Of a DNA stretch of 64,000 bases, positions 2,219-40,279 are shown piece after piece. The notes beneath the pieces are model-generated. The model was not told where the DNA came from and did not search any database. It worked only from the letters and a program-made list of their open reading frames with translations. The translations under genes were made by a program, and so were the position numbers. This DNA is from Trichormus sp. ATA11-4-KO1 (GTDB lineage Bacteria > Cyanobacteriota > Cyanobacteriia > Cyanobacteriales > Nostocaceae): positions 64,001 to 128,000 of the forward strand of contig JAHHIM010000010.1 in assembly GCA_019358915.1 (NCBI GenBank), given 5' to 3'. Each line of letters begins with the position of its first letter. Position 1 is the first letter of the stretch.

Positions 2219-3017
2219 ATCTTTTGATCCCGAACACATCAAAAACTTGGCTGCGGGGTTTGTCGTTGATGATCTTACCCCTGAAGAAGCTGAAGAGTTT
2301 CGGCTATTACTTGATGAGCATCCAGAACTTGTAGTTGAAATAGAAGATTTACAGGAAGTTTTGCGACAAGTTTTAGATGGTTTCACCGAAGTAGAAGCTC
2401 CAGCGCATTTACTACCAAAAATTCTAGAACAAGCTGAAGCTTCGACCAGACAAGCTACTGAGGTCAACCGATATTCTACAGGAGTCACTAAGCGATCGCC
2501 TCGACAGTGGACAAGAATCGCTGGTAGTATCGCCGCGTTGTTTGTGGTAATTCTAGGGGTCGATAACTATCGGCTACGTCAAAATCTGGGTATTGTCACA
2601 GCAGACAACCAGCGTTTACGCCAGGATTTTGCCCAAGCTCAAGTGGTGAAGACCATGCTCCAAGATTACGAAACGCGACTGTTTACTTTTCAAGGAGTCA
2701 ACTCAGCAGATGTTGCCTCAGGAAGTATGATTATCAATCCGGAGCAACAAAAAGCGGTGATGGTTTTCCAAAATCTTCCCGCCCCACCTCCTGGTCATGT
2801 TTACTTATTATGGACAGTTGTTGCTAGCGAGAAGTTACCCTGCGGTGAAGTCAAGCCTTATTCATGGGGAAATGCTGCCTATGAATTACCGTTTACTCCT
2901 CAAATGTACAGAGAATTTTATCATCCACAATTTTCTGGGCTAGTTGTCACTTTGGAGACAGACCCAAATGTTTCTCGTCCTACCGGAACTGTGGTCATGC
3001 AAAGTTCACAAATTTAA
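2211..3017 (+). CDS. Anti-sigma factor (RskA-like, membrane anchored)
   Basis: N-terminal anti-sigma helix (DDLTPEEAEEF), one TM segment, C-terminal NLPAPPPGHVYLLW motif; 8-bp overlap with the sigma gene. Confidence 0.88.
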   Translation: MNKSFDPEHIKNLAAGFVVDDLTPEEAEEFRLLLDEHPELVVEIEDLQEVLRQVLDGFTEVEAPAHLLPKILEQAEASTRQATEVNRYSTGVTKRSPRQWTRIAGSIAALFVVILGVDNYRLRQNLGIVTADNQRLRQDFAQAQVVKTMLQDYETRLFTFQGVNSADVASGSMIINPEQQKAVMVFQNLPAPPPGHVYLLWTVVASEKLPCGEVKPYSWGNAAYELPFTPQMYREFYHPQFSGLVVTLETDPNVSRPTGTVVMQSSQI

Positions 3018-3071
3018 TCATCTAGGACTTACGCAAAAACTTTCTCAACGAGTTGAGAAACGGAATAATAA

Positions 3072-3198
3072 GTAAGTAGACATACTTCAATATAAGATAA
3101 ATTTTTGTTTGTAGTGAGCGATTTAGCGCTTGCTTACAAGGTTTTAAAGAGCTAGATCCCTGACTACGAACTTTTATTTTATTAAGTCTTACTACTTA
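3072..3198. repeat. Degenerate MITE-like element with an inner GTAGT...ACTAC palindromic repeat
   Basis: Ends TAAGTAG...CTACTTA; the inner part resembles the palindromic repeat at about 28790-28848. Confidence 0.45.
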
Positions 3199-3624
3199 AT
3201 AAAAACTTTGGCGATTAAGCTCGACTTTATCCATTTTTTTCGCAACGCGATTGCCCAAGCTGAAACCTATGTGGGACGGTAGTTTTATTCTTTGAACTTC
3301 ATCGATACTCTGTGACGTAGAAAAAGTATTTGCCAAAAAGACAGGATTTTTGCCAGATAAAGAAATCGAGTTCTTAATTTTGGATAAAGTCGAGTTAAGA
3401 GGATGTTTAAAAAGTCCGAGAGGGTATAATTTTGTCATTCTGAGCGAAGCGTAAAGCCCTGACGAGCATAGCTGCGTTTACCGCGTCAGCGTTCCGCATT
3501 AGTGGTTGAAATTTCTGAGAAAAATTACTTGTGTGCTCTATTTATTGTTAACAGTTCTCTCTGCCAAACGGTTAATTGAGCATCACAAGTAGGTCATATT
3601 ATTTTTGGAACAAAAACATTAATA

Positions 3625-19922: not shown

Positions 19923-21536
19923 TTACTCTGAGATATTAACTAAAGTTTCAACTTGAGAAGAAGCTAAAGTTGGTGCTGTAAATATACGCGAGTACAAACT
20001 TGCTGGTTGCTGACGTGCGACAACTGGTAGAACTTGACGGGCATGGGCTGCTAGTTCTACTGTCTTCACATCATAAGTCTGCGTTGCCAATTTGGGATAG
20101 AAACCAATGCCGATGATGGGAACTATCAAACAAGCAGTGATAAACAATTCGCGGGGTTTGATATCGGCAATTACTGCATCTAAATGTAATTCTTCGCTTT
20201 GCTGACCGTAGAATACTTGGCGCAGCATGGACAGTAAGTAAATCGGTGTCAAAATCACGCCCACGGCTGACAACAGGATGATGACAACTTTGAAACTGGA
20301 ACTGTAAACATCGCTGGAGGCAATACCGAGGAACACCATCAATTCACCGACAAAGCCACTCATTCCAGGTAAAGCCAGAGAGGCCATTGAACCAACAGTA
20401 AACATTGCGAAGGTTCTGGGCATTACTTTCGCCATACCGCCCATTTTGTCCATCATCAAGGTGTGAGTACGTTCGTAAGTTACACCAGAGAGGAAGAATA
20501 AACTAGCAGCAATCAAACCGTGGGAAACCATCTGTAGCACTGCACCACTAGCACCAATTTCGGTGTAAGAGGCAATTCCGATTAAGACAAATCCCATGTG
20601 GGCAATTGAAGAGTAAGCCAAGCGGCGTTTGAGATTTGTTTGGGCGAAGGCACAGCAAGCACCGTAAACAATGTTCACTACACCCAACACTGCTAGGACT
20701 GGGGCAAAGTAAACATGGGCATTAGGCAACATTTCCACGTTGATACGGATGAGGGCATAACCACCCATTTTTAACAACACACCAGCCAAAATCATGGAAC
20801 CAGGTGCAGATGCTTCACCGTGGGCATCAGGTAACCAGGTGTGTAAAGGGAAAATTGGCAACTTCACACCGAAGGCAATCAAGAAACCTGCATAAGTTAA
20901 CAATTCAACAGCTTTGGGGTATTGCTTCATGCCCAGAGTTGCCATGTCGAAGGTGACGGTATCTCCAGAGAATGCCATGGCAAAACCAGCTACCAAGATA
21001 AATATTGATGCTGCAGCTGTGTAGAGAATGAACTTGGTGGCTGCATAACGGCGGTTTTGACCTCCCCAAATGGAAATCAGCAGGTAGACAGGTACTAACT
21101 CTATTTCCCACATCAGGAAGAACAACAGCAAATCTTGGGCGACAAATACACCAAGTTGAGCGCTGTACATCGCCAACATCAAACCATAAAACAATCGCGG
21201 CTTGTTGGTGACTTTCCAAGCCGCGAAGATTGCGAGTGTATTAATCAAACCTGTTAACAGGACTAGGGGCATCGATAAACCATCAACCCCGACTGCCCAA
21301 TTTAAACCTAGTTGTGGAACCCAAGTATAATTTTCTACGAGTTGCAGTGTGGAGTTTTGGAAATCGTAGCTATGCCAAAAAGCATAAATCATCAGGGCAA
21401 AGTCGGCGATCGCAACTCCCAGAACATACCACCGAACGGTTTTGCCTTCTTTATCTGGGATTAAAGGGATGGCTAGGGCAGCCACCAAGGGCAATAAAAC
21501 TATGGCTGACAGCCAGGGAAATTCAATAGCATTCAT
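19923..21536 (-). CDS. ndhD: NAD(P)H-quinone oxidoreductase subunit 4 (NdhD)
   Basis: Multi-TM NuoM-type protein; [18 protein letters not shown] and AYSSIAHMG motifs. Confidence 0.93.
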
Positions 21537-21812
21537 CACTTCTGACAATCAATTTACCTTTTTACTTTTAATTACATTATATTAAGGAATCGTTACTTTT
21601 GTAAATGTTATTTATCCCTAATCCCGGTTTTTTGCAAAAATTTTAGGAATAAATACTCATTGATTCCCGTCAAGCCTATTCTAATTGTAAACTTTTGCAA
21701 CGTCAACAAAAAAAATAATAAAAAAGGCGGCTAAAGCCACCGTTTAAAGTTATGATATTCAATGGTTTGCATAGATACGGATAATTTGATCAAACCGCAA
21801 AGAGTGCCAAGT

Positions 21813-22358
21813 TTAAACAATTCGATTCACAATTGTCCAGACTTCTCCATCTGAGCGGACATAGGGAACTGAGATGGTTTTAAACCCAGTAATAAAAGGT
21901 TTGTAGTACACCTGCCAATACATGGGACTGAGATAATCAGCACAAGACTTCAACTGGCGGATTTCTGTTGCTAGTTCCGCAGCCAGTTGATTAATGCGTT
22001 CAGCATGAACCTGAGCCACTTCTCTGGCTGCTTCTAACTCTTGCTCTTGGGTAAGTTGTCTTGATTCTTTTTGCCAATTTTTTAATTCAGCTTGTTTGTA
22101 TTGTCGCTGTACTTCCAACGCCGCGATCGCATCGTCTATACCCTTGAGTTCTACAGACAATTGGGGATTTTCTCTGGCTTGGCGGCGATAAGCTTCAACC
22201 ATTGCCGACGGTGAATTATTTTCGCTAGATAATACATTATTAGCTGAATCATGATCGCCAGATAACACATTCTCAATAGTTAGCGCAGCGCGTTCTTGCT
22301 GGAGAGCCTGAATTTGTGAGTTCAGGGTGGTGATTTCTGTATGAATTGGATTAATCAT
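21813..22358 (-). CDS. Coiled-coil hypothetical protein, probably co-transcribed with thrB
   Basis: 181-aa ORF starting 6 bp after the thrB stop. Confidence 0.75.
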   Translation of the reverse strand: MINPIHTEITTLNSQIQALQQERAALTIENVLSGDHDSANNVLSSENNSPSAMVEAYRRQARENPQLSVELKGIDDAIAALEVQRQYKQAELKNWQKESRQLTQEQELEAAREVAQVHAERINQLAAELATEIRQLKSCADYLSPMYWQVYYKPFITGFKTISVPYVRSDGEVWTIVNRIV

Positions 22359-28903: not shown

Positions 28904-31195
28904 TTACGCTTCGATAACCACCCGGAGGTTACCGCGTTTTTTGGCAACGCGACAAGCGGTAGTGCTACCAGAACGCTCAAATTCTAAATCTAGTATGGTG
29001 GGGCCGACTCGTAAATTATGTAATGACAGCCGATTAATTGATTCTGGCAAAGCGGGGTCAATAATGCGCAAGCAGTTATTTTGAGCGTCGGGTACTAAGT
29101 TGACTACCATTTGTAGTAGTTGAAATATAGTACCAGTAGCCCAAGCTTGTGGTGTACAAGCAACTGGATATTGGACAGGTGTATGATGACCATTACGTTC
29201 GTAACCGCAGAAAAGTTCTGGAGGACGTTGTAAGGGTTGTTGGCTAGTCATATCGAACAAACCTTGGAATACTTCTAAAGCTTGATCGATTAAACCGAGC
29301 GATCGCAATCCCATTGCAATCAGAGAATTATCATGAGGCCAAACTGAACCGATGTGATAGCCCATAGGATTATAAGCTGGGGACAAACTGCTCAAAGTCC
29401 TAATACCCCAACCATTAAACATATCTGGTGCGCGCAATCTCTCTGCCACACTATAGGCTTTTTCGGGTGTGAAAATGCCCAAATTCAAACAGTGACCAGG
29501 ATTAGATGTAATACTCTCTACTTGTTTACCATCTCCATCTAAAGCTAAAGCACAGAAATCTTGGTCTTCTATCCAAAAGTCTTTATTAAAACGCACCTTG
29601 AGGTTTCTCGCCTCATCTAGCCAGCGTTCAGCCAAGTCAAGCCGCTTCTTCATCCTGGCTATTTCTGCTAGGCGAATTTTTGCTGCGTAGACGTAAGCTT
29701 GTACTTCACTTAGAGCGATCGGCCCGTTGGCTAACTCTCCTTTGCGGTCTACAATACAGTCACCAGAATCTTTCCATCCTTGGTTAGCTAGACCGCGTTT
29801 AGATTTACGGTAGTAGGTGAGATAACTGGTTTGTTGGAGATGGCGATCAATCCACTCCATCGCCGCTAGAGCATTCGGCCAAAGTTTCTCTAGGGTTTCT
29901 TGATCATGAGTCCAAGCGTAGTATTCAGCATACAACATCAACCACAGAGGTGTGGCATCAACTGTGCCGTAGTAGGGTGTATGCGGAATTTCTTGACAAC
30001 GAGCCATTTCCCCGAACCGCAACTCGTGCAAAATCTTACCTGGTTCTTCTTCGCGCCAGTCATCCTCGGTTTTACCTTGGTATGATGCTAGTATCATTAG
30101 GGTTTCTTTGGCAATTTGGGGATTTAACATCAAGGTTTGGGAAGCTGTAATCAGCGAATCCCGCCCGAATAATGCCGAAAACCAAGGCACACCTGCGGAA
30201 ACAGTCTTATTCTTGCCAAAAGACTGACGCAATAAATACATATCTTGCTCGGCTCGCTCAATCACACGATTGAAGATACTTTTATCTGATCTAATCTGTG
30301 TAATTTGCTGTACCCAGTGCTGCTCTTCCATCAACTCAGCAGCTTTGGCTTGTCCTAAGGTAAAAGCTGCACTCACCGTGGAACTTGGCTTGTTGTTGGT
30401 CAACATATTCAATCGATAGCCCAGTTTTTGGGTTTCGTGAGAAGCCAAATCCAACCGCCAAACCGCAGTGTAACCTTTGAAATAGTCTGGTTGGCGATGC
30501 TGGAATTGGATACGAGATTCCATCAGTAAGCCGTCTAAACCTTGATAGGCCAATGTCAAGGATTTTTCTGGCTGTGCGGGGGGTTGACTATGTAAGGGCG
30601 AAATCCCATCACCGACAAAATGTGCCCCTTCCGCAAACGCAGGTTCCATTAAGCGTAAAAGTCTACCCCGTTGTGATCTTTGGGCACCGCGAACTTCAAA
30701 TAAATCAACAAAATCGGCATCAAAGCTAATACTTAATTCAAAACTGACGGTAGTTGTGCTGTAATTAGACACCTCTATTTCTTCAAATAGTGCCCCATTG
30801 AGAACTATTTCCCGGCGAATTCCCACAGTCTCGGCTCTTAGGTGTTCGTCAATTCTCGGGTTAGTACACAGAACTGACAGTGAAAACCCTTTTTCAGCAG
30901 TACTGCTGAGGAGAATAGGCGATCGCCCTTCAATTTGCAACTCCAGACGATTGAGAAACCGGGTATCACAGCAAAATAGTCCCACGCTGGGGTTACCATC
31001 GTTGAGGGAACAACCAGAAATGTTCCCCATTGTATCCGTCACCAAAAATAAATCATCATCTTTAGCCGTCAGAGTTGGTTGTGGTTTTTCACCTACAACA
31101 CAAGGCCACTCCGAGATAGATAATTGTTCTGCGGGAATAAAAGTTTTTCCATCCAGGAAGATTGTTTCCGGGGTTATTAGTGTATCCGGTGTCAT
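28904..31195 (-). CDS. Amylo-alpha-1,6-glucosidase / glycogen debranching family protein
   Basis: AGVPWFSALFGRDS, EPGKILHE, NQGWKDS and YHIGSVWPHDN motifs. Confidence 0.9.
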   Translation of the reverse strand: MTPDTLITPETIFLDGKTFIPAEQLSISEWPCVVGEKPQPTLTAKDDDLFLVTDTMGNISGCSLNDGNPSVGLFCCDTRFLNRLELQIEGRSPILLSSTAEKGFSLSVLCTNPRIDEHLRAETVGIRREIVLNGALFEEIEVSNYSTTTVSFELSISFDADFVDLFEVRGAQRSQRGRLLRLMEPAFAEGAHFVGDGISPLHSQPPAQPEKSLTLAYQGLDGLLMESRIQFQHRQPDYFKGYTAVWRLDLASHETQKLGYRLNMLTNNKPSSTVSAAFTLGQAKAAELMEEQHWVQQITQIRSDKSIFNRVIERAEQDMYLLRQSFGKNKTVSAGVPWFSALFGRDSLITASQTLMLNPQIAKETLMILASYQGKTEDDWREEEPGKILHELRFGEMARCQEIPHTPYYGTVDATPLWLMLYAEYYAWTHDQETLEKLWPNALAAMEWIDRHLQQTSYLTYYRKSKRGLANQGWKDSGDCIVDRKGELANGPIALSEVQAYVYAAKIRLAEIARMKKRLDLAERWLDEARNLKVRFNKDFWIEDQDFCALALDGDGKQVESITSNPGHCLNLGIFTPEKAYSVAERLRAPDMFNGWGIRTLSSLSPAYNPMGYHIGSVWPHDNSLIAMGLRSLGLIDQALEVFQGLFDMTSQQPLQRPPELFCGYERNGHHTPVQYPVACTPQAWATGTIFQLLQMVVNLVPDAQNNCLRIIDPALPESINRLSLHNLRVGPTILDLEFERSGSTTACRVAKKRGNLRVVIEA

Positions 31196-31666
31196 TAGCA
31201 CAAGTTCCGTTTACAGGTCTATGTCAATAGGGTCAACAGGGAAAAGTCGCGCTGGAAGACTCTTTCAAGCCAAAAGTCAAATTAATAATCACATATTGTT
31301 GCCAAAGGAGCAGGCATCAAACCTACACAACAAATCCTTATAAGAGTATATTTTTTATATCTGAAGTCAAGGTGGAAATATGATGATTTTTATCTGATTA
31401 ATCTACCACTCAAGCTTATAGGGCACAATGTACAGGGAATACTTAGTCAAGATACTCAAGGCACATTTTTTTGCCAACAAACTTATTCTTCACTCAGGAA
31501 GGAAGCACTATTTTTTGAAAGCCCAAATGTCAAGTTAGATACTTCACTCAAATAAACTTTGGCGCAGGCTGATAGTAGAGATGTCTGTTATACTGCTGGG
31601 CTGTTGGTGGGGGCGCAGCCGCAAGGTTGTCGGTTGGATGGTACAAAACTTAATCTAAAATCCAGC

Positions 31667-31698
31667 TTGACCTTGTACTTAGGTATAGGGTTTATCCT
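31667..31698 (+). promoter_or_regulatory. MerR-type promoter/operator
   Basis: -35 TTGACC, 20-bp spacer, -10 TATCCT; dyad ACCTTGTAC-TTAG-GTATAGGGT overlapping the spacer. Confidence 0.78.
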
Positions 31699-31736
31699 TA
31701 AAGCATCCAGATCACTGCATCGGCGGAGTATTCAGG

Positions 31737-32142
31737 ATGCTGCAAGTTGGCAAGGTCTCCCGCAAAGTGGGACAAAGTGGGACAAACTCTATATTTCTAT
31801 GAGCGCATTGGATTAATTCCAAAGCCCAAGAGAACTGAATCAGGCTATCGCTTGTACGAGGAGCAAGATATAGAGCGATTAGCCTTTATTACTCGTGCCA
31901 AAGCACTAGGCTTAACCCTTGAGGAGATCAAAGAGGTCTTATTACTTCAAAACGGCAAAGCACCTCCATGCCGCGAGGTTCATTCCAAACTGGTGAATAA
32001 AGTCAACCAAATTGAAGAGGCGATCGCCCAGTTACAGGAATTGAAAAGTGAATTGTTACCCCTTATTCAGCATTGTGAAAATAACCTTGCTGAAGCAGGA
32101 CAGTCCGCTAATTGTATTGTTTTTCAAGATAAACCGTTATGA
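31737..32142 (+). pseudogene. MerR-family heavy-metal-responsive regulator, frameshifted near the N-terminus
   Basis: MLQVGKVSRKVG from ATG 31737 is out of frame with QTLYFYERIGLI...SGYRLY...C...C...C; the junction is a CAAAGTGGGA tandem duplication. Confidence 0.8.
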
Positions 32143-32348
32143 AGCCAAAAGTTGCATTTTGGGCGAGTCTATCAGGGACAGCCATAGTCGCTCTATGTTG
32201 CTTCACACCTGTTCTTGTTGTAACCCTGAGCGCGATTGGCTTCGGGGCTGTAGTGGGCTACCTAGATTACGTTTTACTACCTGCCTTAGTTGTGATGCTG
32301 GTTATCACATTTATTTCGTATCGTCAGTACAAACACGGAGGAGTTTAA
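32139..32348 (+). CDS. merF: MerF-like mercury/heavy-metal transporter
   Basis: 69 aa, two TM helices, VALCCFTPVLV and GYLDYVLLPAL signatures. Confidence 0.85.
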   Translation: MKPKVAFWASLSGTAIVALCCFTPVLVVTLSAIGFGAVVGYLDYVLLPALVVMLVITFISYRQYKHGGV

Positions 32349-32350
32349 TA

Positions 32351-32842
32351 ATGACTGAATGCTGTTGTCCATCTTCATCACCTAAAGACAGTGAATCTCG
32401 TTGGCAGCGTCTCTGCCCACAGGACGGGACAAAAGGAAAAATTGTCCAACTGATCACTTTAAAGAGTTTGCTAGTACCAAGCGCACTAGAGCAATTAGAT
32501 TCAGCAAGTGCTTATGGGTTTTGTGCAAGCCCCAATTGTCCAGTTGTTTACTTTTCTGAGCAGGGGCAGACGTTCACAACTGATGATCTGAAAGTACCTG
32601 TTTTCCAAAAAGATTTTAATGAGGATATTTCTGTTTGCTACTGTTTTGGTTGGAGTCGCCAACGCATCCGTGAAGAGTTCAGCCAGTTCAGCCAGTCAGT
32701 TGAAAGCAAGGTTATTGATATAATCACCACTCACATCAAGGCAAAACGCTGTGGCTGCGAAGTCAATAATCCTCAAGGTGCTTGTTGCTTAGGAAATGTT
32801 AGATTAGTGACTGAACAAATCGTTGGAGAACTTGCTAAATGA
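32351..32842 (+). CDS. Cys-rich Zn/[2Fe-2S] metallochaperone (CopZ N-terminal / BFD-like family)
   Basis: CCC, CP, FCxxxxCPVVYF, VCYCFG and CGCEVNNPQGACC motifs; ATG at 32351. Confidence 0.8.
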   Translation: MTECCCPSSSPKDSESRWQRLCPQDGTKGKIVQLITLKSLLVPSALEQLDSASAYGFCASPNCPVVYFSEQGQTFTTDDLKVPVFQKDFNEDISVCYCFGWSRQRIREEFSQFSQSVESKVIDIITTHIKAKRCGCEVNNPQGACCLGNVRLVTEQIVGELAK

Positions 32843-32849
32843 TGTCGCA

Positions 32850-32936
32850 GTATAACAACCCGGTTGGAGCGGACTGTTGAAAGCTGCTGGCGGTGATGCA
32901 AAAGTTAGTAGCAGCCGCTCAACCGGAACGTTGAAT
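32850..32936 (+). other. attC-like recombination site
   Basis: R'' GTATAAC, 5-nt spacer, L'' GGTTGGAG ... L' CTCAACC, 5-nt spacer, R' GTTGAAT; the arms pair with two extrahelical bases. Confidence 0.75.
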
Positions 32937-33246
32937 GTATATTGGGCGTAGTAGCTGATTATTTGAAACCTCACGATGCTAGCAAATGGATAAACAAAAC
33001 TTGGGTGAAGATCAAAGCGAGTGTAACGAAATGCTACAACACACCAGGGTGGGACCAATGAATGTATTGCCATTGTTGGTCTAGGCTGGGAAATTGTTCC
33101 CACGCTGCCACTATAACTTTGTAGAAAGTGCTGTTCAAAATTCTTTACATATTCCCACTGTTTGCTGCACTTGAGAGTCCATTGTAATTTGTACAATGCA
33201 GCTGTGACGCGAATCTTGTCCAGATTGGGCTTCTTTAACGATATTC

Positions 33247-35256
33247 ATGAGCATTTCGACTTCCGTGCTGAGTGATCTGCTACAGTCCATACCTTACCTG
33301 CGGCCCCAGCTATATTTCAAAGCTTCACTAACGGCCCTCTCCCACGCGATGGAAGATCAGGTTTTGGCGGCGACTTTAGACCAGCCTTTAGTAATTGCTA
33401 GCTTCCAACGAGAGCGATACTATCGCCAAGAGGCGCATCGCTATCAGCGATTAGCTTTGCGTAGTAATCAAATATATGTCTTATCCGCACCGGAAACGGA
33501 TTTCACCAACAGTTCGGAATACTATGAAAAAATTGCCTTTGAGCCAGAAGATTTTTTAAGTCAAGAGTGGCATTTGGTGGTAATCGCTGATAACTATGCT
33601 ACTTGTTTAGTTTGTCGGGAAAGCCTTGGTTCCATTGCCAAAAATCAGCAGATACCAGATGTCAGTCCTGGTCTAGACATGGATACTGCTCGGAGGTTTG
33701 AGGGAATTTGGACATCAGAACGGGGAGTTAGCCTCAAAGCAGCCGAATTGCTCTTAGACAGGATTTTGGTTTACAGACCAGACCTGGCAAAGAAAATTCA
33801 AAATGCACGCCAGAGGTTTGGTATAGGGGGTAGCCGCAACTACTCCCAGACTGCACAAATCACTGAGTTTGCTTGTGACATTGATACTGACCCCTTTGTG
33901 CAGCGTTTGGTGACTTATCTGCAAGCTAGTCAGTACAAATTACATAAAGCTTATCGTTCAATTACTGCCCAAGCACGCAAAGAACGTTTAGTCAACTCTA
34001 TTAGTACTGCCATTCGGCGATCGCTTGACCCCCACGAAGTGCTACAAATTGCTGCACAAGAATTGGGGCAACATTTAGGGGCTAGCCGTTGTTTAATTTA
34101 CCGCTCTCCCACCATAGATACTCCAGCCGAAATTAAACACGAGTTCTTGACTCCCGGTGTTGTATCGATGAGTGGGCAAACCTGGGAGCTAGATAAAAAT
34201 CCTTTATTTCAGGAAGTAGTAAAAAATGGTGAAGGCGTTTGTGTAGCTGATACTCAAACTGACCCCCGCGTTACTAGTTCGACCACATTATCCCTAATTG
34301 TCAAAAAATTCGCGATTCGTTCTTGGCTGATCGAACCAGTATTATTTCAAGGGCGATTGTTGGGGATCGTAGAATTACACTATTGCAGCCTACCACCACA
34401 CGAGTGGCAGGCAGGGGAATTGGATTTGGTAAAAGCGATCGCTACCCAAATGGGAGCAGCCTTGATTCAAGCAGAAGCCTACGCTAACCTAGAAGACCTC
34501 AATCAACAGTTAGAAGCCCTCGACCGCACCCGCAGCAACTTAATCGCCATTACGGGACACGAACTCCGTACCCCCCTATCCACAATTCAAGTGTGTTTAG
34601 AAAGTCTCGCCACTGAACCTGATATGCCTGTAGAGTTGCAGCAGGTAATGTTGAGTACTGCTCTTTCCGACTCAGAACGGATGCGGAAACTAGTGCAAGA
34701 TTTCCTCACTCTTTCTAACCTAGAAAGCGGTCGAGTGGAATGGCATCCAGAATCCCTCACCTTAGAAGAGTGTGTAGAGTTAGCTCTCAGCCGACTTCGC
34801 ACCCGTTCTTCAACAGAAAAACTCCCCCAAGTCAAAACTCAAATTGCCCAAAATCTGCCTTTAGTGAGAGCCGACGGTGATTGGCTGGTGGAGGTATTAG
34901 CCAAACTTGTAGATAACGCTTGTAAATTTACACCACCCGAAGGAAAAATCACAATTACAGCTACCCAAAACGACAATCAGATGGTTGAAGTGACAGTAGC
35001 TGACACTGGACGCGGTATCGAAACCAATCGTCTAGAAATCGTTTTTGACCGTTTCTATCAAGAAGAAGGAGCGCTACGGCGTACCACTGGCGGTACTGGT
35101 TTAGGGCTAGCAATTTGCCGCCAAATTGTCAATGGCTGGGGCGGTGAAATTTGGGCAGAATCAATGGGTAAAGACCAAGGTAGTCAGTTTCACTTCACTA
35201 TTCCCATTGCCCAGGTGAGCAAAGAGGAAAAGCGGTCGAAAGTCAAGAGTAAGTAA
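33247..35256 (+). CDS. DICT-GAF sensor histidine kinase
   Basis: DICT motif (KASLTALSHAMED, ASFQ, EWHLVV), GAF domain, H-box HELRTPL, DNACKFT and GTGLGL. Confidence 0.9.
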   Translation: MSISTSVLSDLLQSIPYLRPQLYFKASLTALSHAMEDQVLAATLDQPLVIASFQRERYYRQEAHRYQRLALRSNQIYVLSAPETDFTNSSEYYEKIAFEPEDFLSQEWHLVVIADNYATCLVCRESLGSIAKNQQIPDVSPGLDMDTARRFEGIWTSERGVSLKAAELLLDRILVYRPDLAKKIQNARQRFGIGGSRNYSQTAQITEFACDIDTDPFVQRLVTYLQASQYKLHKAYRSITAQARKERLVNSISTAIRRSLDPHEVLQIAAQELGQHLGASRCLIYRSPTIDTPAEIKHEFLTPGVVSMSGQTWELDKNPLFQEVVKNGEGVCVADTQTDPRVTSSTTLSLIVKKFAIRSWLIEPVLFQGRLLGIVELHYCSLPPHEWQAGELDLVKAIATQMGAALIQAEAYANLEDLNQQLEALDRTRSNLIAITGHELRTPLSTIQVCLESLATEPDMPVELQQVMLSTALSDSERMRKLVQDFLTLSNLESGRVEWHPESLTLEECVELALSRLRTRSSTEKLPQVKTQIAQNLPLVRADGDWLVEVLAKLVDNACKFTPPEGKITITATQNDNQMVEVTVADTGRGIETNRLEIVFDRFYQEEGALRRTTGGTGLGLAICRQIVNGWGGEIWAESMGKDQGSQFHFTIPIAQVSKEEKRSKVKSK

Positions 35257-37633: not shown

Positions 37634-38221
37634 ATGAACACCGCCATAGTCAATTTACCACCTACCCTCAAATTGAAACTTAACTTGAGCGATGAACAAT
37701 TTTTCCAGATGTGTCAAAAAAACCGCGATTATAGATTTGAGCGCACAGAATCAGGGGAAGTATTAATCATGACGCCATCTGGAAGCGAGACAGACAGGCG
37801 TAACGTCAAAATTACTACACAACTAGATATTTGGAACGAGCAAAATCATTTAGGTGAAGTATTTGGCCCCTCTGCTGGCTTTAAACTTCCCAATGGTGCA
37901 AATCGTTCTCCAGATGCTTCTTGGGTGCATATTGATAAATGGAATGCTTTAACCTCAGAACAACAAGAAAAATTTGCCCCAATTTGTCCTGATTTTGTAG
38001 TAGAGTTGCGATCTCCTAGTGATTCCCTCAAAGACTTGCAGGATAAAATGCAGGAATATATCGACAATGGCGCTCAATTAGGCTGGTTAATTGATCGGAA
38101 AAATAAGCGCGTAGAACTTTATCGTCCAGGTAAAGATTTAGAGATATTAGATAATCCTAATAGCTTATCAGGAGAAAACATATTACCTGGATTTGTATTG
38201 AACTTACAACAAATTATGTGA
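37634..38221 (+). CDS. Uma2 family (DUF820) endonuclease-fold protein
   Basis: GFKLPNGANRSPDASW, PDFVVELRSPSD and LGWLID motifs. Confidence 0.92.
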   Translation: MNTAIVNLPPTLKLKLNLSDEQFFQMCQKNRDYRFERTESGEVLIMTPSGSETDRRNVKITTQLDIWNEQNHLGEVFGPSAGFKLPNGANRSPDASWVHIDKWNALTSEQQEKFAPICPDFVVELRSPSDSLKDLQDKMQEYIDNGAQLGWLIDRKNKRVELYRPGKDLEILDNPNSLSGENILPGFVLNLQQIM

Positions 38222-38231
38222 CTAATAATTT

Positions 38232-40175
38232 TCAACGATTAGGATAAACATGGCGCATTTCAAATCTGCTTTGTTCCCAAAGTGCTAGCAAAGCTCTTTT
38301 AGCAGCATTTAACTGTGATTGAGAAAACCGGACTTTGCCATGCTCGATAATCCAGATAAATGTCCGTGTGATTAAATCTGCTTGCAAACTGTTCTCAAAT
38401 TTACAATTATTTATTCTTGCTATTTGCCTATCTAAAGCACATATTGCATCTTTAAAAGTGGAGTTTTTATAGTTTATAGACTTGCTAGAAATACCTTCTT
38501 GGTAATTTTCCCATTCAATCCTATGCAAAGTTCCTGTAATATAATCTATGCCTGCGATCGCAGAATCAGTATTACGTACTAAATCTGTAAATGCTTGGTA
38601 ATATGGCTGTAACAGCGAAGCAGCAAGATTTTCAATATAAATATGTAACCACGACTGGATATCACGTAAATAAGGAACTAATTCTTTAATATCATTAATT
38701 TTTTCAATAGGACGCCGCTCAAGTTGAGAATTTACGATATTTTTTGTTAATTCAGCTTCAGATAATTGAAATTTATTGGAGTAATAATCAATAACTTTAG
38801 GAATATATCTTTCTAATAACCATTTTTTGGTATATCTAGCCGTCCAAGTTCCCTGTGGGCCAATATCTTGTTGCCATGAGGTAACTTCTCCTCTCTCAAG
38901 CGATTGTAAGTGAATTTCATTTATTATATAAACTATATTAATTTTCTTATTTTCTGAGTAATTACTATCAGCTTTAGGCAATATAAATGCATGATCACGA
39001 ATTCCCCGGCTTACCCGGATTGATAGATTTTCTTGATGAAACAGATGCCATTCGGATTTACCTTGGGCATAATTAAATTCATTGGCAAAGTTTTGCATTA
39101 ATTCCCATAATTTTAACTCTACCGAGAAAAGATAAAAACCACAAATATTGGTAAACTTTACTAACTCAAAATCCCATGTTTCTAAAATATTTTCAAATCC
39201 AATAATTAATTTTTTATATTCTTGGCAAACTGCATCAATACACAAACACAAGTCAGTAATTTCTAATTTTGATAAAATTACTGATACTTGCCCTAAATAT
39301 ACTTCAAAGGCATTATTTCCTAGTTGTTTCAAAAAACGACGGCATCCCCACTCTAGCGGAGTATCCAACCCAATCATTAATTTTTCTAAAATGTCTCGAT
39401 GATTTAAGTCGATTTTTAACCCTCTGAAATTTAAACTACTGAACTGGATTTGACAATTACCTTCTGCAAATGCTTTTGGTAAATTACACTCAATTAAAAC
39501 TTTAGATTTTATAACAATAAAGTGATTACCTTCTTGTATAATAGAAGGTTCAAAATCTGATTTTGATAAAATATTTTGTACGTCTGGATAGGAATTGAGA
39601 GTTTTTTCTAAATTAATATATTTAGTAAAAGCAAAATTATTATTTGTATTTTTGTCAATATTTTTAACAAATGCAAAATTTAATTTATTATAGAATTTCG
39701 AGGCTAAGTTAATATTAATCAATAAATCAGTATTTGTATCAAAAATAGTCTCTTCTTTTTGGTAATAAAGGCATTTAAATACATTTACTTTATAGCCATT
39801 AGTGACAACAAAAAATAATAATTTTAGATATTTATTGTAGAATTTTGCTTGTTCAATCGCCTCTTTAAAATTAGTTGCGCTTGGTTCTAAGCATATAACA
39901 CTAATTAATGATGTCTCTGCATTTTGTTCTTTTATGTGATCAGTAGAAAAATAAAGTTGCGCAATTTTTAGTTTTTTTGCCTGGGTTCCAGAGTTATATA
40001 TTTTTAATGGATACTTACTCTGCCGACATCTTTCTGGATAACCAAGATACTGAAACATCGGAATAGCAAAATTTTTTTCTACATCATCTTCAGTTTTTAA
40101 AAGACGATTATCAAAAGATTGTATCCATTTAATAAAGTGATTAATTGACGCTGAATTAGACATTAGGGAACCCAC
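38232..40175 (-). CDS. AT-rich hypothetical protein with an N-terminal restriction-endonuclease-like (HsdR_N-type) segment
   Basis: TEDDVE...FQYLGY, EQAKFY and VVTNG pattern in the N-terminal 140 aa; the rest is unrecognised. Confidence 0.6.
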   Translation of the reverse strand: MGSLMSNSASINHFIKWIQSFDNRLLKTEDDVEKNFAIPMFQYLGYPERCRQSKYPLKIYNSGTQAKKLKIAQLYFSTDHIKEQNAETSLISVICLEPSATNFKEAIEQAKFYNKYLKLLFFVVTNGYKVNVFKCLYYQKEETIFDTNTDLLININLASKFYNKLNFAFVKNIDKNTNNNFAFTKYINLEKTLNSYPDVQNILSKSDFEPSIIQEGNHFIVIKSKVLIECNLPKAFAEGNCQIQFSSLNFRGLKIDLNHRDILEKLMIGLDTPLEWGCRRFLKQLGNNAFEVYLGQVSVILSKLEITDLCLCIDAVCQEYKKLIIGFENILETWDFELVKFTNICGFYLFSVELKLWELMQNFANEFNYAQGKSEWHLFHQENLSIRVSRGIRDHAFILPKADSNYSENKKINIVYIINEIHLQSLERGEVTSWQQDIGPQGTWTARYTKKWLLERYIPKVIDYYSNKFQLSEAELTKNIVNSQLERRPIEKINDIKELVPYLRDIQSWLHIYIENLAASLLQPYYQAFTDLVRNTDSAIAGIDYITGTLHRIEWENYQEGISSKSINYKNSTFKDAICALDRQIARINNCKFENSLQADLITRTFIWIIEHGKVRFSQSQLNAAKRALLALWEQSRFEMRHVYPNR

Positions 40176-40279
40176 CTGCTTGTATAAATTTTTAAATTTT
40201 TAGTTATCTAAATTGTTCATTTAACTAGCAATTTATCAAGTCAGTTTGGATAGTATGGTAATTGTAAATACTTTATTAA

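Follow-up and report, generated by a model that had tools for sequence, protein, structure and literature searches.

Integron gene cassettes are known to settle at genomic sites away from any integron. Single attC sites lacking an integrase (SALINs) were defined by Loot et al. (bioRxiv 10.1101/2022.09.11.507474), who counted 3,400 of them in 2,469 genomes; proposed from genome counts, they were reproduced in E. coli and V. cholerae. According to that work, a double-stranded GWT site, cut at G|TT, is the partner with which the folded bottom strand of attC recombines; both insertion of attC at such sites and subsequent excision were shown. A natural example of a complete cassette at a non-attI site is that of aadB, which Loot et al. 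cite from secondary sites in RSF1010 and pRAY, a single promoterless plasmid gene in need of a neighbouring promoter. Integrons in cyanobacteria and cassette-borne promoters are already known (PMC4889954, PMC8618304), and examples such as toxin–antitoxin cassettes show expression independent of Pc and more than one ORF. On the mer side, Synechocystis has the Hg-responsive MerR Slr0701 and the MerA Slr1849; according to PMC6741143, merT, merP and other transport genes are undetected there, and cyanobacteria are without mer operon organisation. No description of mer genes or MerR operons as integron cassettes was found in the literature searched, which covered few subscription journals.

The locus described here, in a 64,000-nucleotide stretch of Trichormus sp. 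ATA11-4-KO1 DNA (hereafter the window), resembles the SALINs of Loot et al. in that one complete cassette occupies a GWT triplet with no att site or intI nearby, but it differs from them in having a natural empty allele as well as copies at attI and in an array. Cassettes of this type also carry three or four genes with their own predicted regulated promoter, and therefore need no host promoter. Unlike aadB, the window cassette is chromosomal, operon-sized and self-promoted; unlike the internal-promoter and two-ORF cassettes, its type has three to four ORFs, with a putative metal-sensing activator and an operator. The process of SALIN formation by insertion at a genomic site (attG) is already known, and what is new is the completeness of the natural evidence together with the regulated, multi-gene, mer-type cargo. 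A natural SALIN with an empty allele and with copies in normal settings ties the genome counts to laboratory insertion, one cassette is seen in three states (attI-like, array and genomic GTT) in cyanobacteria, a group with few integron studies so far, and the cargo widens the cassette concept to a regulated three- to four-gene mer-type operon.

Judged from its sequence, the segment 31588–32930 (+ strand, 1,343 bp) is a real integron cassette, as the original prediction had it, with exact ends, empty alleles, the attC anatomy and the same ends elsewhere in its support. The crossover lies within the GTT common to both ends, and its placement at G|TT is conventional. At the left junction (31587–31596, + strand), a host G is followed by the remainder of the cassette's own R' box, and two orthologous cassettes, L044 and L045, share this start. 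The decamer at 31587, GTTATACTGC, is complementary to R'' and the three bases preceding it, being the reverse complement of the ten bases ending in R''. This perfect 10-bp match, already pointed out in the original prediction, has a chance of about 0.003 of arising within 3 kb; the decamer is not unique, with seven occurrences in the genome and another at the start of the first cassette in the integron of a relative, G016. The predicted positions of the third-gene stop, R'', R', the left decamer and a HIP1 octamer were all borne out in the sequence. The HIP1 octamer (32020–32027, + strand), which is also present in merR of L044 and L045, had been taken as a sign of circulation among cyanobacteria; on its own it is weak evidence, since one copy in a 1.34-kb cassette matches the genome average of 0.82 per kb, and HIP1 was discarded as a sign of origin. 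GC content was rejected as a marker too (cassette 44.5%, genome 41.7%, flanks similar).

The insertion GTT is genomic and intergenic, between two divergent host genes that are kept in relatives: an amylo-alpha-1,6-glucosidase-like gene on the left (28904–31201, − strand) and a DICT-CHASE6-GAF histidine kinase gene on the right (33247–35256, + strand). The empty site was found in relatives with the flanks joined at the predicted GTT. In G001, the one further genome of the genus to compare with, left and right flanks abut (query 1–1091 and 2431–3499) with the junction letters GATGTCTG|TTAAATG, and G019, of a different genus, reads TTGTCTG|TTGAATG. There is no target duplication beyond the common GTT at the cassette ends. 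Bases at the junction and immediately to its right are kept in five genomes of five genera (G001, G019, G005, G002 and G014); in an alignment of ten intergenic regions, five rows were informative. A full copy of the cassette was found neither among 388 other family genomes (four partial matches of 67–72%) nor among 400 genomes drawn from the phylum (two partial matches), which argues that it was gained in this lineage; plasmids gave nine partial matches, none covering 80%. The insertion point borders an element (32931–32960) that is kept in five genera and precedes the histidine kinase gene by about 310 bp; if this element is a promoter, the insertion may have changed expression of the kinase.

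The attC site (32850–32936, + strand, 87 bp) lies at the right end, its last bases, those after the G of R', being host DNA. Its R'' box (32850–32856) reads GTATAAC, with 6/7 matches to the consensus, and its R' box (32930–32936) reads GTTGAAT, with 7/7, so that both the invariant AAC and the invariant GTT are present. With the host bases of R' exchanged for those of the cassette's left end, the R box pairs completely. R'', R' and the 87-bp length agree with the original layout, but the L boxes do not: comparison of 30 sites places L'', GTTGGAGC, at 32863–32870 and L', GCTCAAC, at 32917–32923, one base further in and with 6-nt rather than 5-nt spacers. The arms do pair with exactly two extrahelical bases, as claimed. 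These lie at 32866 and 32873 and correspond to T-N6-C on the bottom strand, a spacing that PMC3053210 associates with efficient excision by four integrases. Folded as DNA, the bottom strand reaches −15.5 kcal/mol (z = −2.64), and 2 of 200 shuffles did as well. Pairing of L'' with L', extrahelical bases on one arm, an unpaired central spacer and a variable terminal structure, which are among the structural features of attC sites listed in PMC5027507, are all seen here.

Sister sites were collected by profile searches seeded with the window site and four others from its own genome, a generic scan of the genome for the AAC...GTT architecture having returned 143 candidates that were mostly noise. 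After seven incomplete matches were dropped, 32 complete cyanobacterial sites remained. Some of them sit in undoubted integrons, behind an attI and an intI remnant on contig C25 of the same genome and, in another case, upstream of the intact intI of G024 (L037). When 30 sister sites were aligned with the window site, the stem was 91.4% paired, against 26–41% in slid controls, and 12 of the 18 pairs showed two-sided changes across the 31 sites. The covariation score was reached by none of 500 shuffles, a result to which no probability attaches because the aligned sequences are related. A covariance model of 28 sister sites, from which the window site and its two orthologues were left out, gave the window attC 84.2 bits for the bottom strand against 17.7 for the top, a score that is partly circular because the training sites had been gathered by similarity to this very attC. 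By this model of sister sites the result favours the original prediction, and the site is the only real match of the model in the window. An Rfam scan of 31000–33500 returned nothing relevant, with four weak unrelated matches.

The same cassette is found elsewhere, in close copies that are 81–89% identical and have the same two ends. In L044, an unclassified MAG, the cassette has a further cassette behind it and, on its left, a sequence that can be aligned with the palindromic attI known from intact cyanobacterial integrons; in L045, from Gloeomargaritales cyanobacterium VI4D9, the cassette is preceded by an attC and lies within a run of eight attC sites. The window's left flank is not attI-like when aligned with bona fide cyanobacterial attI sites, to which that of L044 does align. 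Homology between the three copies extends from the left GTT to the attC GTT, so the units of L044 and L045 are bounded by identical ends, the outcome foreseen for homologues of a true cassette. When the window is compared with L044, the leader is 88.5% identical, merR and merF 86%, the third gene 81% and attC 68%; the differences from the orthologues in the attC arms are compensatory. Both L044 and L045 have an additional merT-merP fusion. Contigs from runs X3 and X7 pass from merF straight into the third gene, from which it follows that the three-gene form exists outside this genome. One soil contig from run X2 (197 bp, depth 3.2) has attI-like letters joined at 31587. The exact left-end pattern had a single match in metagenomes, L182, which is the window's own DNA, and 26 in genomes; two of these, L044 and L187 (the L045 region), are the cassette, and the 154-bp cassette leader was unmatched at the remaining ones. 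In VI4D9, one copy of a transposase gene precedes the cassette array (L045:1362-2354) and another (L145:7093-8474), about 940 kb away, stands in place of the 5' part of intI, which suggests that an IS split a single integron. A short deletion in L045 has also fused merR and merF.

These data make it very probable that a promoter-bearing multi-gene cassette was inserted by IntI acting in trans at a genomic GTT (attG) between the divergent host genes. The folded attC bottom strand would have recombined with the double-stranded GWT site, cut at G|TT. The insertion is at a 5'-GWT-3' in DNA unlike attI or attC, with an empty allele, and the attC is the only one in the window, with neither intI nor a further att site close by. 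Because the target is not an attI, the locus is a SALIN formed by attC × attG recombination, and the original proposal of insertion at a secondary GTT between two host genes holds, with empty alleles in two genera. The CRGM motif of the attG hotspots of Loot et al., which marks a subset of attG only, is missing: TGTA stands at +6 to +9 of the cut.

Three other histories were weighed. The insertion might have been made in another strain, the filled allele then being received by homologous recombination through the flanks. The absence of an intact intI from the assembly and the comparison with just one other genome of the genus would fit such a transfer, but closely related IntI remnants occur in the lineage, as do sister attC sites, and no other carrier of the filled allele turned up among the 388 family genomes; we regard this history as improbable, and the junction mechanism would be identical anyway. 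Still less probable is a cryptic primary or hotspot target, in the form of a degenerate attI that is kept in Nostocales and has repeatedly captured cassettes. Conservation around the junction in five genomes of five genera might be read in this way, but it is more simply that of a host promoter element, the target is without the palindrome and L box of cyanobacterial attI and without the CRGM motif, and none of the five genomes has a cassette there. The least credible history, which the empty alleles largely refute, is that a resident integron decayed here, lost its intI and attI by deletion and left only this cassette: although the genome has several decayed platforms (a deleted intI on C25, a truncated one on C5, an attI-like region on C73), in two genera the flanks run on without a break as ordinary intergenic DNA, identity of the left flank to the empty allele is 91% as far as the junction itself, and a probe of attI and the region upstream of intI matches C25, C73 and C18 but not C10, the window's contig.

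Insertion by IntI in trans raises the question of its source. The original prediction noted no integrase nearby, which holds for the window and for C10, where none of the 18 matches of the integron integrase model TIGR02249 falls, but broken integron integrases exist on C5 and C25. A search of the assembly (73 contigs, 99.89% complete) turned up no intact intI: residues 92–313 are all that C5 retains, the intI on C25, next to two cassettes and an intact attI, has lost a large internal part, and on C37 a short stretch of the C-terminus is left. Identity to the intact IntI of G016 is 93–97% for the pieces on C5 and C25, and an intact intI occurs in 4 of the 24 other family genomes compared. Seven full attC sites on five contigs, six of them in the covariance training set, answer the call for sister sites in the genome. 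The idea of an IntI-like recombinase encoded elsewhere is supported, although the genome's own integrases survive only as broken remnants; we infer that the inserting enzyme was most likely the lineage's own cyanobacterial IntI before its decay, and that, with no intact copy in the assembly, the cassette is now largely locked in.

Several of these remnants deserve mention in their own right. The small integron on C25 (L030:5140-8622) consists of the intact attI, two cassettes and the internally deleted intI, and directly next to its last attC is a 364-bp duplicate, 97% identical, of the 3' portion of a cupin gene located beyond intI. The platform looks as if moved whole by recombination of attC with a genomic site, a move that is unproven because the full cupin gene has T, not G, before the junction. 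On C5 (L029:10298-11159, contig positions 123297-124158), intI is without residues 1–91, an attC lies about 120 bp upstream and toxin–antitoxin-like genes lie beyond; an IntI-made breakpoint was ruled out there, as homology ends away from a GTT, and G001 has other integron remnants at this locus. C73 (L140:1724-3650) has an attI-like region and two attC sites with no intI; since the attC found there in G001 is a different one, the region looks like an integrase-less docking site of variable content. Further solitary or truncated attC sites occur on C13, C47, C33 and C15 (L139, L141, L142 and L143), those of C47 and C15 sharing an identical truncated end, and C18 has an attI fragment (20812-22322). 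Comparison of the attC sites on C13, C73, C47, C25 and C5 with five genomes for empty alleles met contig breaks or poor intergenic similarity.

The cargo begins with a predicted MerR-type promoter (31667–31698, + strand; −35 TTGACC, 20-nt spacer, −10 TATCCT), whose layout recurs before other cyanobacterial MerR homologues and which a sigma-70 scan had missed because its spacers were limited to 16–18 nt. Within it lies a predicted palindromic operator (31671–31690, + strand), identical at 18 of 21 positions, compared by eye, to the Slr0701-bound oligonucleotide given in PMC6741143. The operator is the sole match in the genome with zero or one mismatch and one of the 12 listed at up to two mismatches. 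The following merR-family gene (31737–32142, + strand) keeps three Cys codons and has a +1 frameshift near its 5' end, so that the original three-gene metal module stands as to its three genes but not as to an intact merR. From the ATG at 31737 the frame runs for 21 residues to a stop; the alternative frame from TTG at 31747 gives 131 residues with the normal first helix of the HTH replaced. The source of the frameshift is a 10-bp tandem duplication (31764–31783, + strand) in place of nine orthologue bases, and its letters are confirmed at high depth in a Logan contig of run X1, which probably is the source of the window DNA and is not independent. The X7 contig has no extra base and an intact frame, and all 10 of the other members fetched from the regulator's 90% cluster (72 proteins, with the cargo found in many metagenome assemblies) have an intact N-terminus. 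The frameshift implies that the module is probably not inducible in this strain, and the window copy would probably be left with only weak, uninduced expression. A 9-bp in-frame tandem duplication in the third gene (32676–32693) is absent from L044, L045 and the X7 contig; together, the two duplications suggest recent slippage-type decay of the window copy.

A predicted operator, a 20-bp spacer and Cys, as expected of a mer-operon regulator, are present, but the gene, intact in the orthologues, is frameshifted here. The intact MerR of L044 finds its best PDB match in 4UA1, which we take to be a Hg sensor from Bacillus, with Cys at the first two aligned ligand positions and the third 13 residues on. 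The nearest other MerR proteins of the host are 33–42% identical. The protein falls below every NCBIfam subfamily cut-off, with similar scores against the CueR, CadR/PbrR, ZntR and MerR models. The second gene encodes MerF (32139–32348, + strand, 69 aa), a mercury transport protein by NF033565 (85.1 bits, cut-off 50) and PF11431, so that one of the transport genes of mer operons (merT, merF, merC or merE) is present. The third (32351–32842, + strand, 163 aa) encodes a CopZ-N-terminal-like putative Fe-S/Zn metallochaperone (NF047645, 127.1 bits, cut-off 100; PF18423), similar to PDB 2HU9 at E 1e-9. The cassette has no merA, and no MerA above the cut-off was found in this genome or in the two other carriers; the best match to the MerA model in the genome (389 bits, cut-off 454) is a PRK06370-family oxidoreductase on C6 whose gene is without a matching operator. 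One of 79 neighbour proteins scanned, at L055, exceeded the MerA cut-off. With no merA, the cassette represents the sensing and transport half of a mer operon, not a complete one. It shares with mer operons and with the Slr0701–Slr1849 pair (PMC6741143) a three-Cys MerR-family regulator, a predicted matching operator and mer transport genes that would be co-transcribed, but it differs in being without merA, in having a CopZ-N-like Fe-S protein instead and in lying on an integron cassette.

From these domain matches we lean towards a self-inducing mercury module in the intact copies. The intact MerR would sense Hg(II) or a similar soft divalent ion and activate the 20-bp-spacer promoter, MerF, with or without MerT-MerP, would carry the ion across the membrane, the Cys-rich protein would bind it or hand it on, and reduction would be left to a host enzyme. 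A module for Cu, Cd, Zn or Pb seems rather unlikely, although several observations agree with it: the third gene resembles the N-terminal domain of archaeal CopZ (2HU9), for which we assume a copper role, the regulator scores alike on the four subfamily models, homologous modules adjoin multicopper oxidases (L049, L051, L060) or lie near CopM (L053), and merA is missing. Against these metals speak MerF, which is above its cut-off, the MerT-MerP fusion of the orthologues, itself below cut-off, 4UA1 as the best solved relative of the regulator, an operator matching the site of the Hg-responsive Slr0701 and a Cys at the first ligand position, which argues against the CueR type.

The mercury-type cassette may belong to a wider pattern. 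In G570 (L208:19-935), a cassette with the window's leader and promoter follows another cassette's attC and carries merR and a TIGR00412 thioredoxin-like gene, its right end lying off the contig. A 2.36-kb cassette of Egbenema (L238:3316-5676), bounded by a 10-bp match of R'' and start, has a MerR operator and an inverted operon of merR, a TIGR00412 thioredoxin-like gene and a permease gene. We tentatively suggest that cyanobacterial integrons hold a recurring class of operon-sized, self-regulated cassettes in which a MerR sensor with its operator and inducible promoter would be joined to exchangeable metal-handling cargo: merF and CopZ-N with or without merT-merP, a thioredoxin-like gene, or a thioredoxin-like gene and a permease. 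With their own inducible promoter, such cassettes would work wherever IntI puts them, in arrays, at attI or at a genomic GTT. If the suggestion is right, mer-type transport genes, which Synechocystis is reported to be without, would pass between cyanobacterial orders with integrons as a main route, and MerR-regulated cassettes should be over-represented among SALINs. Among 62 loci of MerR homologues, an attC match was found in 6 and none in 56, with both ends around the operon in L238 only. Among the best 80 of 257 loci of the third protein, an attC lies directly behind the gene in two (L044 and L045) and in none of the other 78, one of which has an attC 3.2 kb off; given these counts, the CopZ-N module, as far as these loci represent it, is mostly outside cassettes. 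The locus raises the questions of whether self-promoting cassettes are favoured at attG and what role a merA-less, mer-like unit with a CopZ-N Fe-S protein plays.

Elsewhere in the window, a low-GC stretch (23–34%) at 38200–40200 contains a 647-aa ORF that is probably a separate acquired gene.
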